From a virus (taxonomy: Duplodnaviria; Heunggongvirae; Uroviricota; Caudoviricetes), in IMG/VR virus record IMGVR_UViG_3300031134_000639: DNA of 64,000 bases. One strand, given 5' to 3'. Of the stretch, positions 36,004 through 49,181 are shown piece by piece. Each line of letters opens with the position of its first letter. Positions within the stretch are counted from its first letter, which is position 1. The translations under genes and the position numbers were made by a program. The notes beneath the pieces were generated by a model that did no database searches, was not told the DNA's origin, and worked only from the letters and a program-made list of their open reading frames with translations.

Positions 36004-36969
36004 ATGTGTCGTACTAAGAAGTCGGGTGGGCGTAGATGCCCTCAACACACGGATCCTGTAAAACATGCCGCATATAATGCTCGTAGGCGAGAACTGTACG
36101 CCGAAAAGAAAGACTCTACAAAAGTTGAGTCTGAAGAATCAATAGTTATAGTAGACCATGATGATTCCGTAGACTATGGCTTCCTCCCATTAGACAAACC
36201 TCGTAAACCGTATAAGTTCTCCTCCAAGCTCGGTAAAACCTTTGCCAAAGATGCTAATGAGTTTGCTAAAGCAATTCAACCTGACTTTGATGTCGAACGT
36301 TGGAGACTCAGAAACATCTACCACGAAAACATTGCAACAGATGACCCAATCTACAATGAAGGTAGATTCGCTTTCCTTGAGTACACAGCGTCCAATTACG
36401 CTCTCATTGGTGTACGTTTGAACGGTAGAAACTTGAGTTCAAAAAGACATGACAATTTCAAGTTGACTAAAGACCAAGAAAATGAGCTTGACCGTAAGAT
36501 TGAGACACTTGATGAGCTTTTTACTAGAATAAGGCAGCCTTCGGAACCACGAACGCTGTATCGTGGCATGCAAGTGCCTGACACCGTAGAGCAAGAGAAC
36601 GTTGACAGCTGGCTAGAGAGTAAGTTCCCTGTAGGTGGTATTGTCTCGCAGAAGAATTATATGTCAACAAGTTTGAACCCTAAGATAGCAGCAGGTTTTT
36701 CCTACAGTGACCATAGTGACCCAAGAAAAGTAGCTCGTGCAGTCATTTTTGAGATAAGAACAACTGAGGGTGCTCCTCTGGGCCATGGAACATCCTCCTA
36801 CAAAGATATTGAAGCGGAAGTCCTCCTTCCACGCGACTTAAAACTGAAAGTTGTCAAACGAGAGACAAGAGCCTCACACACCATTGGATCTTTTTTGAAC
36901 CGAAAAAACCAAGTCAGCATCTCTACAGTAATTCAGTTAGTTGACGTAACAAATGAAGGAAAAATTTAA
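36004..36969 (+). CDS. ADP-ribosyltransferase paralog ART-1 (R-S-ExE) with Cys-knuckle/Arg-rich leader
   Basis: ORF track. MCRTKKSGGRRCPQHTDPVKHAAYNARRRELYA; LYRGMQV; NYMSTSLNP; IEAEVLLPR. Confidence 0.8.
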   Translation: MCRTKKSGGRRCPQHTDPVKHAAYNARRRELYAEKKDSTKVESEESIVIVDHDDSVDYGFLPLDKPRKPYKFSSKLGKTFAKDANEFAKAIQPDFDVERWRLRNIYHENIATDDPIYNEGRFAFLEYTASNYALIGVRLNGRNLSSKRHDNFKLTKDQENELDRKIETLDELFTRIRQPSEPRTLYRGMQVPDTVEQENVDSWLESKFPVGGIVSQKNYMSTSLNPKIAAGFSYSDHSDPRKVARAVIFEIRTTEGAPLGHGTSSYKDIEAEVLLPRDLKLKVVKRETRASHTIGSFLNRKNQVSISTVIQLVDVTNEGKI

Positions 36970-37856
36970 TGTGCCGCAGCAAAGAATTAGGCGGCAGGCG
37001 CTGTCCATCTCATACAGACCCAGCAAAACAGTCAGTCTATAATGCTCGCCGCCGCGAACTATATGCACAGCGTAAGCAGGCCCACAACATATCGTTTTTG
37101 AATTACAACACCGCCAAGCCATGGCTAAACGAAGACGATGATGCATACAAAACGTTTGTAGAAGAGGCTGATGCGTTTGCACGCAAGGTGAATCCCAACA
37201 TTAATACAACTCAATGGGATGATGATGAAATGATTTATATGGAACCAGTAACTGACGAGCAGGATGCTCTTATTCAATACAGCGGCGATGGCTATGAAAA
37301 TATCAATCAGTACCTTCGTGCCGGACAACCTAAAACTGATGTAGAACAAACTTTCAAGGTCAAGTTTGACGAATATCGCTCTGCGGCAGAAAACGCCAAT
37401 TTAGTAAAAAATATTGATTCAGCGTTGCTCAAAGCAATACCATCAGAAAAACCACGAGTACTTTATCGCTCTATTCGTGTGCCTCGCGGTGTACCATCTA
37501 GCCAGGCCTCACAATGGCTTAGAGAAAACTTCTCAGTAGGATCTGTCGTCAGCAACCCTGGTTACATGTCAGTTTCTTTGAACGCAGGGCTAGCCAACAG
37601 TATCTTTGGTGAAAGTAGTACGCAACAAACGGCAATCACCATGGAAATCTTAAGTAAAAAAGGCGCTCCGCTTGGAGCAGGCATGTCCAAAACAGCTTAC
37701 AGCGAAACTGAACTTCTTTTACCGCGTGACGTTAAACTAAAAGTGGTCTCTTTAGAAGAAGACGTAGATTACACAGTGATGTTCCGAAACAAAGAGAAAA
37801 CAACCAAACGCACTGTTATACGTCTCATAGACGAAAATGATGAAGGAGAAAACTGA
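36969..37856 (+). CDS. ADP-ribosyltransferase paralog ART-2
   Basis: ORF track. TAATG overlap with ART-1. MCRSKELGGRRCPSHTDP; LYRSIRV; GYMSVSLNA; SETELLLPR. Confidence 0.8.
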   Translation: MCRSKELGGRRCPSHTDPAKQSVYNARRRELYAQRKQAHNISFLNYNTAKPWLNEDDDAYKTFVEEADAFARKVNPNINTTQWDDDEMIYMEPVTDEQDALIQYSGDGYENINQYLRAGQPKTDVEQTFKVKFDEYRSAAENANLVKNIDSALLKAIPSEKPRVLYRSIRVPRGVPSSQASQWLRENFSVGSVVSNPGYMSVSLNAGLANSIFGESSTQQTAITMEILSKKGAPLGAGMSKTAYSETELLLPRDVKLKVVSLEEDVDYTVMFRNKEKTTKRTVIRLIDENDEGEN

Positions 37857-38731
37857 TGTGCAGACCCAAAGAGAATGGTGGGAGACGCTGTCCTCAACAC
37901 ACTGACCCTGTAAAACACGCCGCATATAACGCACGTCGTAGAGAACTGTACGCTGCTTCCAAAAAAGCGGACTCATCTTCTGCTCTGACTAGTCTTTTCC
38001 CTGAGATGGGTGTTCCCATACAACCACTAAATGAAAACGTACGTCTTGCGTTCATTGCTGATGCTCGTAAGCTGACTAAAGCGCTCCTGCCGGATTTTGA
38101 TGAAAACACCTGGGCGCTTACAGAGAGTGTTATAACCTCAGACCATCCTAAATATGCTAACCCTGCTAGCCATGAAAGCTTGCGTTACTATACAGATATT
38201 GGCTACACTCATCTTAGAGCTAATCTAGAAGGCAGAGGTTATGCTGCTCCTGAAACACTTGAATGGGAACATCGTGTCATAGACTCTATTGACAAAGCTT
38301 TCGAACAGGCATCCCCACCTGATGAGCCTCGCCTACTATATCGTGGTATGAGAATTCCTAGTGAACATGAGCCTGACCAGTTCATTAATGAGAACTTCCC
38401 TGTTGGAGGTGTTGTCAGCCAGAAGTCTTATATGTCAACAAGTCTGCTACCTTCGGTATCTAAGTCATTCGGGGATGGATTTGGGCACGGTGAAGAGCGA
38501 ATTGCTAGGTCAGTAGTTTTCCAGATTGTTAGCAAACAGGGTATAGCTCTGGGAAAAGGAACCTCCGAAATGTCGGACAGGGAAAAGGAAGTTCTGATGC
38601 CTCGTAATGCGAGATTCAAAGTAGTTAGCGTAGATAAAGGCGTTGACTTCAGCTATACTCCGTTTGGTTACCCTAATGAGAAACTGAAGCGCACGTTAAT
38701 TCGTTTGGTTGATGCGTCAGACGAAGAATAG
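37856..38731 (+). CDS. ADP-ribosyltransferase paralog ART-3
   Basis: ORF track. TGATG overlap. MCRPKENGGRRCPQHTDP; LYRGMRI; SYMSTSLLP; REKEVLMPR. Closest to ART-4. Confidence 0.8.
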   Translation: MCRPKENGGRRCPQHTDPVKHAAYNARRRELYAASKKADSSSALTSLFPEMGVPIQPLNENVRLAFIADARKLTKALLPDFDENTWALTESVITSDHPKYANPASHESLRYYTDIGYTHLRANLEGRGYAAPETLEWEHRVIDSIDKAFEQASPPDEPRLLYRGMRIPSEHEPDQFINENFPVGGVVSQKSYMSTSLLPSVSKSFGDGFGHGEERIARSVVFQIVSKQGIALGKGTSEMSDREKEVLMPRNARFKVVSVDKGVDFSYTPFGYPNEKLKRTLIRLVDASDEE

Positions 38732-38764
38732 ACTAAGTTCACTCCTATCAGGTTTAAGACAAAA

Positions 38765-48311: not shown

Positions 48312-48318
48312 TAGACAT
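48308..48318 (+). promoter_or_regulatory. CTGATAGACAT motif variant; TAGACA-N6-ATG (ART-12)
   Basis: Overlaps the radA stop codon. Leaderless spacing. Confidence 0.45.
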
Positions 48319-48323
48319 ATTCT

Positions 48324-49181
48324 ATGTGTAGAACCGGTGGTAGACGTTGTCCAGCTTACAGTGACCCTCAGGCTATAGCCGACCGTAATGCAAGACGCAG
48401 AAAAGCTTATGCTGCTAAGAAAAGTGTTGTTCAGCCTCCACTGGAGATGGCCTTTCCTAGCCTAAGTGAAGTACGTAAAGTTGTTGGTTCTGAAGACCGC
48501 GAGTTGCGTGGTAAGAAGCTTGAAGAAGAACTTACTAGCTCTGAAGTAGAAGCAGTCGGGTACTACACAGAATCAGGTTACATAACTGTGCGAAATGAGT
48601 TAGTGGACTGGGAGTTAATCCAGGATTTGCAAGATAATGAAGACGTAGAAGAGCCTGATGAGGACATAAACGTTATCATAGACCATCTAGATAATGTGAT
48701 AGCTAAAGCCATCCCACCCCAAAATCCTGTGCCATTATATCGTGGAATTAATGTACCTATCTCAGTGCATTTAGACGAAGTTGATAATTGGGTTGATGCG
48801 AAATTCCCTATTGGTGGAATAATTCAGCAGGATAACTTCATGTCAACTTCATCAGCGCCGCAAACTGCGGTAGGCTTCAGTCAGCCAATAGATTCTATGT
48901 TTGGCAACTACGAAGATGAAAACGAAATGCGAGACATAATGTCTCAAGAACGCAGCATTGTTATGGAAATTTTAAGTAAAAAAGGTGCTGTTATCCTACC
49001 TTCTTTAGCTGGTGGAAGTTACGATGAGCAGGAAACCTTGCTGCCAAGAAATGCACGACTCAAAATTGTTGGTGTGCACAAGAAACAATCTTATTCATAT
49101 ATGACAAGATTCAGGCCCATCGACCCAGAAATAGCCATGGTTGTAAACCGTACTGTAATACAGGTAGTTGACGCAGACTAG
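48324..49181 (+). CDS. ADP-ribosyltransferase paralog ART-12 (short-knuckle subtype)
   Basis: ORF track. MCRTGGRRCPAYSDP; LYRGINV; NFMSTSSAP; DEQETLLPR. ATG lies 6 nt after TGaTAGACA, where the TGA is the radA stop. Confidence 0.8.
   Translation: MCRTGGRRCPAYSDPQAIADRNARRRKAYAAKKSVVQPPLEMAFPSLSEVRKVVGSEDRELRGKKLEEELTSSEVEAVGYYTESGYITVRNELVDWELIQDLQDNEDVEEPDEDINVIIDHLDNVIAKAIPPQNPVPLYRGINVPISVHLDEVDNWVDAKFPIGGIIQQDNFMSTSSAPQTAVGFSQPIDSMFGNYEDENEMRDIMSQERSIVMEILSKKGAVILPSLAGGSYDEQETLLPRNARLKIVGVHKKQSYSYMTRFRPIDPEIAMVVNRTVIQVVDAD

Follow-up and report, generated by a model that had tools for sequence, protein, structure and literature searches.

The 64,000-nt viral DNA stretch IMGVR_UViG_3300031134_000639 (Caudoviricetes), whose full length is referred to here as the window, carries a same-strand array of 12 diverged ADP-ribosyltransferase (ART) genes. 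A first-pass annotation had described them as catalytically intact mono-ARTs of the R-S-E class (C2/C3/Vip2/iota type), and this description is borne out by profile and PDB matches, by the model and fold of copy 11, and by purifying selection on the ten array copies compared between strains. Further arrays of the same kind occur on related metagenomic contigs, and the interpretation that we favor, with a probability of roughly 0.6, is that at least three tandem arrays represent a lineage-specific expansion of at least 31-36 single-domain R-S-E mono-ARTs in an uncultivated element of 0.5-0.9 Mb, most likely a megaphage, in which they would form a diversified battery directed at the host. The feature itself is real and well supported: a system of known kind, here in an extreme, lineage-specific expansion and with a new leader module. 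A role in host takeover or counter-defence and the phage context are what we infer from it.

All 12 plus-strand open reading frames (ORFs) initially proposed, encoding proteins of 277-321 aa, were present in the ORF list at precisely the coordinates first given, and a six-frame scan with a hidden Markov model (HMM) detected no additional family member in the window beyond these copies and an outlying gene at 18778-19686. The ART membership proposed for this outlier holds (PF03496, triad), with its strand corrected to minus; it shares ~26% identity with copy 1. Comparison with the ADPrib_exo_Tox profile (Pfam: PF03496) placed 13 out of 13 proteins, that is, the 12 copies and the outlier, above the gathering cut-off, with scores of 30-69 bits against a cut-off of 23.4 and E values from 4e-7 to 4e-19. 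In the 13-way alignment, the triad previously reported as unbroken was kept in every copy, the catalytic Arg (R187), the M-S of the S-T-S motif (M220-S221) and both Glu residues of ExE (E270/E272) being invariant, and the Tyr of the upstream YT..GY segment was likewise invariant. The triad was also intact in 35 of the 35 genes aligned across three arrays, and a 36th ART gene (924-1889 of locus L012), which was checked for ExE only, carries this motif as well.

A profile built from the 13 sequences and searched against the PDB retrieved SpvB (4.9e-12), followed by Certhrax, Vis, VsdC, Vip2, HopU1, and Tre1. Structure modelling of the array ARTs was performed on one copy, copy 11, for which AlphaFold2, using a 45-sequence alignment, produced a model with a mean pLDDT of 90.1 and a pTM of 0.81. 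Foldseek comparison of this model returned the toxin relatives anticipated from the sequence motifs, with Certhrax in the first position (5.8e-12) and then CDTa, Plx2a, Vis, Vip2, iota Ia, C2-I, and C3; the PDB matches ranged in E from 5.8e-12 to 6e-9, with TM-scores of 0.6-0.7 on single-domain targets. Two-domain targets were covered over only ~35% of their length, the array ARTs having a single ART domain. A two-domain binary-toxin A component is ruled out by this single domain and by the length of 277-321 aa; no B-component gene was found in the window or the loci, and Pfam detected no PAAR, Rhs, LXG, WXG, or signal-peptide domain on the ARTs. Among the phage protein families, the Alt-like PHROG 802 gave a weak match (E 7e-4), versus 2e-6 for PHROG 3895 ("ADP-ribosyltransferase exoenzyme toxin"), the latter obtained with copy 6. 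In BFVD, ARTs joined to MuF (head-morphogenesis), portal, or minor-capsid proteins are among the nearest viral folds, and models of the Alt type ("RNA polymerase ADP-ribosylase") matched at 4e-9 to 6e-8. Within this ART clade, arginine specificity is marked by ExE and not by QxE. Because of this signature and of an adjacent hydrolase of the DraG/ARH1/Tri1 kind, described below, the array enzymes are predicted to mono-ADP-ribosylate arginine using NAD+.

Each ART gene combines a conserved N-terminal module, a hypervariable linker with helical subdomain and C-terminal tail, and a moderately conserved catalytic core in which all NAD-site and catalytic residues are retained; the mean frequency of the top residue among 35 paralogs from the three arrays was highest in the module (0.78), intermediate in the core (~0.5), and lowest in the hypervariable parts (0.25-0.32 for linker, helical subdomain, and tail). 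The array copies are mutually 30-43% identical, with the exception of copies 3 and 4 (67%). The best non-self match was usually a neighbor in the same array (26 of 36 ARTs, 33-54% identity), and the fact that nearest relatives mostly lie side by side points to old in-situ tandem duplication. Selection was assessed by comparing the window with a second strain (locus L002) over the ten array copies that they share, which yielded a pooled synonymous difference (pS) of 0.064 and a pooled nonsynonymous difference (pN) of 0.0069, for a ratio of 0.11 (0.00-0.29 per copy). Since the differences between strains are mostly synonymous, these ten copies are kept as functional genes, and the pooled pN/pS together with the intact triads rules out decaying pseudogene copies. 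Copy-number variation among relatives, which the first-pass annotation had proposed to look for, was found: some strains lack precisely copy 2 and hence conserve 11 copies. Copy 12 is only 75% identical between strains (pS 0.65) in between flanking genes that are ~100% identical, and copy 1 has a pS of 0.23 where the neighboring genes have 0.02-0.08; this high divergence of copies 1 and 12 suggests that recombination has replaced alleles at the array edges.

Every array copy starts with a Cys/Arg-rich module of 33-36 aa, MCR(T/S/P)[KEL]GGRRCPxH(T/S)(D/N)P...NARRRxxY, which is the most conserved region of the protein and exceeds even the catalytic core across the 35 paralogs. In the first 35 codons, synonymous sites are scrambled from copy to copy, and the constraint must consequently act on the peptide rather than on the DNA; the same observation rules out gene conversion or a DNA-level signal behind the conserved 5' ends. 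In the copy 11 model, the module consists of a loop and then a single helix (residues 15-34), and the linker that connects it with the ART domain is modelled at low confidence. No Pfam match was obtained for the module even at E 10, and a word-index search with the module alignment returned nothing, whereas an exhaustive search of 1.84 billion representatives with a module HMM recovered 187 proteins (cluster representatives) in which the module is essentially always placed at residue 1. In the 144 module-bearing proteins that were scanned for domains, PF03496 was found 125 times and ART-PolyVal, Zeta_toxin, and DUF3990 once each, while ~15 have other bodies or no recognised domain. Within the window itself, the module heads a predicted CCA-adding tRNA nucleotidyltransferase, the PolyA_pol label of which was taken from precomputed Pfam annotation. 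As this distribution shows, the module is portable between enzymes. The antisense frames of the module region (e.g., 41562-41819 and 38876-39118, minus strand) read a similar AAY(S/N)SxRRALYAA peptide and give spurious ORFs of 80-85 aa, which looks like a codon-composition by-product of the Ala/Arg/Tyr-rich helix.

A further gene, at 22204-23043, had been put forward as a candidate ART. Its paralogy to the array is ruled out, as it has no Pfam match, no BLASTP link, and an hhalign probability of 0.1%; the ART-superfamily fold, in turn, is supported, because the predicted structure resembles 2aua (BC2332) and other members of the superfamily, its structural neighbors including DarT, Arr, and KptA. 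The family of this protein comprises 19 homologs without Pfam match, one of which (P0181) bears the canonical MCR..GGRRCP module in place of the variant N-terminal motif, and the leader is therefore portable in this case as well. With 13 family members and one BC2332-like ART fold, the early estimate of 13-14 ART-like genes per 64 kb is confirmed. The adjacent gene at 23085-23954 was considered as a relative and shows no relation.

The array extends well beyond the window in scale. Proteins identical to those of the window were found on metagenomic contigs of 163,254, 624,949, 663,129, and 885,359 bp, from samples of several JGI, ENA, and SRA sources, and an identical copy 10 protein occurs on contigs as large as 885,359 bp. 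On the 624,949-bp contig, the window array is accompanied, at a distance of ~145 kb, by a second array of seven module-bearing ARTs (array A). The contig Ga0540649_0000007 (511,644 bp) contains the seven genes of array A, at least 16 genes of a third array (array B), and eight visible genes of a window-type array, so that at least 31 ART genes were verified on one contig. The count for array B is a lower bound, as the locus begins inside the array or at its edge; an exact DNA pattern designed for its upstream extension found no match among metagenome contigs, and array B may hold more than 16 genes. Since array B proteins also occur on the 885-kb and 163-kb contigs beside window-type copies, including an identical copy 12, the window lineage very probably has all three arrays, amounting to 12 + 1 + 7 + at least 16 R-S-E ARTs and, in addition, one BC2332-like protein. 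In other samples, two to three module-bearing ARTs were seen in tandem on small contigs. A second element of 727,572 bp from the same sample encodes longer module-bearing ARTs (369-512 aa) beside an ADP-ribosylglycohydrolase. Arrays A (loci L015/L016) and B (L012/L017) contain, or end with, genes for GNAT acetyltransferases on the opposite strand; pilin-like N_methyl proteins are encoded within or flanking array B, and genes for a MoxR-type AAA protein, for a HATPase_c_3 protein of 765 aa, and for PTH2 and HD proteins come after array A.

Immediately upstream of the window array, ending ~100 nt before copy 1, lies a gene for an ADP-ribosylglycohydrolase (ARH; DraG/ARH1/Tri1-like). Sequence comparison with the PDB matched this protein to MJ1187, DraG, ARH1, Tri1, and ARH3, and the metal-site motifs DDTQM and GDTDS are intact as read in the translation. 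On the 727-kb contig of the second element, an ARH gene is likewise near three longer module-bearing ARTs. The ARH is a candidate eraser of the predicted modification and may provide self-protection.

Junctions in the array are 1-nt overlaps or gaps of <100 nt with no ORF in between; as described initially, the tight ones comprise six 1-nt stop/start overlaps (TAATG or TGATG) and one 2-nt gap (43283/43286). The 11-mer CCGATAGTAAT has five exact copies in the window, all intergenic and on the plus strand, where ~0.5 would be expected even with one mismatch allowed, and four of them stand 27-31 nt upstream of start codons, namely those of copies 1, 5, and 11 and of the CCA enzyme. The proposed division into sub-operons (copies 1-3, 4, 5-10, and 11) is supported by the placement of this motif, or of its variant, ~30 nt before copies 1, 4, 5, and 11, by the hairpin ahead of copy 1, and by the terminator after copy 11. 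Often, a strong hairpin immediately precedes the motif; the order of hairpin followed by motif seen between the ARH gene and copy 1, read from the intergenic sequence, recurs upstream of the ORF at 34009. The motif also precedes array B ARTs (5345, 6314, and 11539 of L012), the proteins of which are only ~40% identical. A scan for sigma-70 promoters showed no enrichment over shuffled sequences; CCGATAGTAAT does not fit the sigma-70 consensus and is regarded as a candidate element-specific promoter. The features of the window are listed in table 1.

Table 1. Coordinates of the ART genes and associated features in the window
Feature	Coordinates	Strand	Remarks
~200-aa ORFan paralogs	310-957, 881-1498, 1539-2099, 2099-2779, 2776-3378	-	
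~200-aa ORFan paralogs, remaining members	3381-3983, 5954-6565, 11092-11751, 11779-12447, 12480-13157	-	
Outlier ART	18778..19686	-	302 aa; degenerate N-terminal Cys motif; PF03496 E 9.7e-11; triad intact
BC2332-like ART-superfamily fold (predicted)	22204..23043	+	Variant N-terminal C-x7-C-x2-H motif
CCGATAGTAAT	25898-25908	+	Before CCA enzyme (25939-27411)
PolyA_pol / CCA-adding tRNA nucleotidyltransferase	25939..27411	+	N-terminal module MCQPQSEGGRRCNGH...; module HMM E 1e-4 at residue 1
ADP-ribosylglycohydrolase (DraG/ARH1/Tri1-like)	34766..35902	+	PF03747 E 3.7e-43
Hairpin, 20-bp stem	35912..35957	+	Between ARH and copy 1; motif next
CCGATAGTAAT	35964..35974	+	30 nt upstream of copy 1
ART copy 1	36004..36969	+	321 aa; long-type N-terminal module; PF03496 E 1.6e-11; catalytic triad intact
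ART copy 2	36969..37856	+	295 aa; PF03496 E 2.1e-15; missing in L002, L004, L005 (11-copy strains)
ART copy 3	37856..38731	+	291 aa; PF03496 E 1.2e-09
Variant motif AACCGATAGATAT	38763..38775	+	Upstream of copy 4
ART copy 4	38808..39698	+	296 aa from ATG, 302 aa from GTG at 38790; PF03496 E 3.1e-12
CCGATAGTAAT	39740..39750	+	Upstream of copy 5
ART copy 5	39780..40634	+	284 aa; PF03496 E 2e-08
ART copy 6	40634..41584	+	316 aa; PF03496 E 1.7e-09
ART copy 7	41584..42450	+	288 aa; PF03496 E 1.3e-15
ART copy 8	42450..43283	+	277 aa; PF03496 E 4e-07
ART copy 9	43286..44203	+	305 aa; short-type module (MCRTGGRRCP); PF03496 E 1.7e-13; PF01129 E 1.6e-06
ART copy 10	44203..45135	+	310 aa; short-type module; PF03496 E 2.8e-08
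CCGATAGTAAT	45154..45164	+	Upstream of copy 11
ART copy 11	45191..46054	+	287 aa; short-type module; PF03496 E 4.4e-19; modelled copy
Intrinsic-terminator-like hairpin, 20-bp stem	46087..46134	+	Closes 11-gene block after copy 11
RadA/Sms-like ATPase	46896-48311	+	Full-length (zinc ribbon, RecA-like ATPase, Lon/ChlI-like C-terminus); between copies 11 and 12
ART copy 12	48324..49181	+	285 aa; PF03496 E 9.1e-13; 12-nt gap after RadA/Sms-like gene
NERD nuclease-related protein	49235-49879	+	Next after copy 12
CCGATAGTAAT	61747-61757	+	Abuts start of ORF at 61756

Regarding the carrier, most ORFs of the window and the loci have no Pfam or PHROG match. The annotated genes encode ThyX, NrdH-I-E, a NAD-dependent ligase (LigA), an RNA ligase, the CCA-adding enzyme, NT5C, the RadA-like ATPase, NERD, NlpC/P60, DUF2637, and flotillin, and elsewhere on the contigs there are PTH2, HD, and pilin-like proteins as well as GNATs. 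The RNA ligase is nearest to those of jumbo or huge phages (Atu_ph07, a 735-kb uncultured phage, and Caulobacter jumbo phages). No tRNA, Rfam RNA, rRNA, or ribosomal-protein gene was seen in the ~190 kb composed of the window and the ~20-kb loci. A tblastn search of the ARTs against 50,697 phage records gave nothing significant, and no relatives were found in 185,579 GTDB species-representative genomes. PADLOC matched neither the ARTs nor the ARH, and neither the NERD nor the BC2332-like protein, and a known anti-phage defence system was rejected on this basis. Altogether, we regard the element as quite probably a very large phage.

Under the interpretation that we favor, the ARTs would use NAD+ to mono-ADP-ribosylate arginines of host proteins, and the paralogs would differ chiefly in their substrate-recognition surfaces, each of them modifying another host protein or host-protein variant. 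Different substrates per paralog are suggested because the helical subdomain, the linker, and the C-terminal tail, all outside the NAD site, are where the variation concentrates. As a set, the enzymes would act as a diversified battery for host takeover or counter-defence, transcribed in short sub-operons from the promoter-like motif CCGATAGTAAT with translation coupled via the 1-nt overlaps. The upstream ARH would reverse or limit the modification, serving to shield proteins of the element itself or as a temporal control. The module would serve as a portable address tag, either as a virion-packaging/ejection signal or as a common docking or nucleic-acid-binding peptide. By analogy, a packaging/ejection signal is the most likely of these roles, because the nearest viral ART folds in BFVD frequently occur in fusion with MuF, portal, or minor-capsid proteins and because T4 Alt is packaged in the virion and injected, an outcome that a short tag would achieve in another way; an RNA-binding arginine-rich arm is a serious alternative, since the module also heads a tRNA enzyme. 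A bolder version, which we hold only tentatively and consider doubtful, takes the module as a new portable cargo tag of very large phages, placed on ARTs, the CCA enzyme, a Zeta-like kinase, and the BC2332-like ART for co-delivery with the genome or for common docking, and the arrays as the largest known viral repertoire of target-diversified arginine ARTs, checked by a single generic ARH.

Several observations weigh against this interpretation. Activity, targets, and arginine specificity are predictions, and the diversified surfaces could reflect escape from host inhibitors instead of different targets. Only one ARH was seen, by the window array, with none within 4-10 kb of arrays A or B. With respect to the module, only two Cys residues are invariant, the His is replaceable by Tyr, and no protease-site-like motif is conserved at its end; these data do not tell a packaging signal from an RNA- or protein-binding peptide. 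As for the carrier, the ~190 kb showed no gene for a capsid, terminase, portal, or tail protein, no close relatives were found in INPHARED or IMG/VR, and the 885-kb contig exceeds the 735 kb of the largest reported phage genome. It is because of the lack of a visible virion gene, the absence from catalogues, and the size of this contig that phage identity is given here as probable rather than certain.

A first alternative is that the arrays are the toxin/effector arsenal of a cellular organism or of a giant plasmid-like element, from which the ARTs would be exported for antagonism toward other bacteria or a host, with the module acting in trafficking and the ARH conferring broad enzymatic immunity as Tri1 does for Tre1. 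A conserved N-terminus followed by a variable body resembles polymorphic toxins, Tre1/Tri1 are among the PDB matches of the ARTs and of the adjacent ARH, and the contigs, which reach sizes above any reported phage and are absent from IMG/VR, carry pilin-like N_methyl genes, a prepilin-peptidase fragment, a signal peptidase S26, and a 1184-aa surface-type protein. Nevertheless, the ARTs have none of the PAAR, Rhs, LXG, WXG, or signal-peptide domains and the module has no Pfam match; there is no immunity gene between the toxins, which are joined by 1-nt overlaps, and no secretion-system genes are adjacent. The element also has no relative among the species-representative genomes and no tRNA, rRNA, or ribosomal-protein genes in ~190 kb, and its genes are mostly ORFans, the annotated ones being typical jumbo-phage auxiliary genes. 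We thus judge a cellular or plasmid-borne arsenal unlikely.

More unlikely still, in our view, is that the enzymes act on nucleic acids or NAD-capped RNA, through ModB-like RNAylation or pierisin/DarT-like base modification, with the module as an RNA/DNA-binding arm that takes the ARTs and the CCA-adding enzyme to tRNA, rRNA, or nascent transcripts. The very basic module, with its predicted helix and NARRRxxY, would suit such a role, as would its presence on a tRNA nucleotidyltransferase, an RNA-acting enzyme, and the related N-terminal motif on the BC2332-like fold, which neighbors DarT, Arr, and KptA. Nonetheless, the ExE signature and the nearest proteins of solved structure (SpvB, Certhrax, Vis, Vip2, iota, HopU1, and Tre1) belong to protein-arginine transferases, no RNA-binding domain was detected, and the adjacent hydrolase is of the DraG/ARH1/Tri1 type rather than a macrodomain or NADAR protein, the kinds that reverse nucleic-acid ADP-ribosylation. 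We find it improbable, and the least credible of these explanations, that the copies are redundant, with the expansion providing gene dosage or evasion of ART-binding host inhibitors or antibody-like immunity proteins, and act on the same one or few targets, such as RNA polymerase. T4 ARTs (Alt, ModA, and ModB) do overlap in target, the catalytic core and the module are common to all copies, and copy number varies among strains without obvious loss of the array. Against redundancy, an identity of 30-43%, with divergence in the helical subdomain, linker, and C-terminal tail, goes far beyond the needs of dosage, and the ten array copies compared between strains are all under purifying selection; moreover, dosage duplicates normally stay similar or homogenised, whereas here the synonymous sites are scrambled.

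In comparison with known systems, the array ARTs share the profile, the triad, and the predicted fold with the ADPrib_exo_Tox toxins (SpvB, Certhrax, Vis, Vip2, iota Ia, CDTa, C2-I, C3, and HopU1), from which they differ by the novel 33-36 aa module and by the presence of dozens of tandem paralogs per genome. Binary toxins, in addition, use an adaptor pseudo-ART domain and a B component, whereas the array ARTs are single-domain proteins with neither of these and no signal peptide. T4 Alt, ModA, and ModB are similar in being phage ARTs of the same structural clade, several per genome, that are thought to reprogram host proteins via Arg. They do not appear to be orthologs, however, as the best sequence relatives of the array ARTs are toxin-type ARTs, and T4 has three ARTs (PMC7824862) against at least 31-36 here, with no shared N-terminal module or equivalent of the adjacent ARH. 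Bacillus/Lysinibacillus phage G encodes at least 10 ARTs and Bodo saltans virus 12, viewed as conflict effectors (PMC9503650), and the initial statement that no described element has an arsenal of this size is accordingly inaccurate for the 13-14 genes of the window; the whole element, in turn, far exceeds published viral ART repertoires. These two viruses resemble the present case in their big genomes with many ARTs, and the difference lies in the single subfamily, the three tight arrays, the one leader, and the ~3x more genes found here. No sequence relationship of the array ARTs to the ARTs of phage records was detectable.

The pairing of an arginine-type ART with an ARH-family hydrolase able to reverse its product is shared with Tre1-Tri1 of the Serratia type VI secretion system (T6SS) and with DraT-DraG, though unlike Tre1-Tri1 the copies and their neighbors show no PAAR, Rhs, or T6SS context, and there is one ARH per 11-12 ARTs rather than a 1:1 ratio. 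Polymorphic toxins have their own immunity gene per cassette and long trafficking domains, and the array has neither, its leader being just 33-36 aa. Polyvalent proteins and MuF/portal-fused ARTs (PMC5512222) likewise attach an ART effector to a delivery part, and one module-bearing relative contains ART-PolyVal; here, in contrast, the leader is a short stand-alone N-terminal peptide with no MuF or portal fusion. In the literature, we found no description of dozens of same-subfamily ARTs in tandem arrays, of the N-terminal module, or of one ARH beside such an array.

Other paralogous families were observed in the window. Ten ORFan paralogs of ~200 aa on the minus strand (310-13157) share an EDGG(L/I)(T/K)LxDG(K/R)TY motif at 22-54% identity and have no Pfam match; a link of this family to the RadA-like gene was discarded, as the one weak BLAST match (30% over 77 aa) is probably spurious. 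Smaller ORFan paralog families are located at 51716-52636 and 52753-53640 (minus), at 57991-58890, 58921-59784, and 59807-60667 (plus), at 4102-4632 and 4692-5180, and at 16091-16675 and 18104-18682. The 295-aa gene at 52753-53640 is missing in 11-copy-type strains (L002, L021, and L022), so copy number is variable there too.

Phage ARTs like T4 Alt, ModA, and ModB are the textbook example of post-translational host reprogramming, and few have known targets. The set described here bears on how many host processes a giant phage may modify, and its at least 31-36 naturally diversified enzymes on one scaffold constitute a panel for examining how the helical subdomain, the ARTT region, and the C-terminal tail encode specificity. 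A module that is more conserved than the active site and exchangeable between unrelated enzymes points to an undescribed addressing mechanism, and a single ARH by many ARTs suggests enzymatic reversal as a generic self-protection permitting such an expansion. The locus also draws attention to a clade of elements of 0.5-0.9 Mb that current virus catalogues lack, and, if the element is a phage and the 885-kb contig a single genome, its size would surpass that of every phage reported so far.

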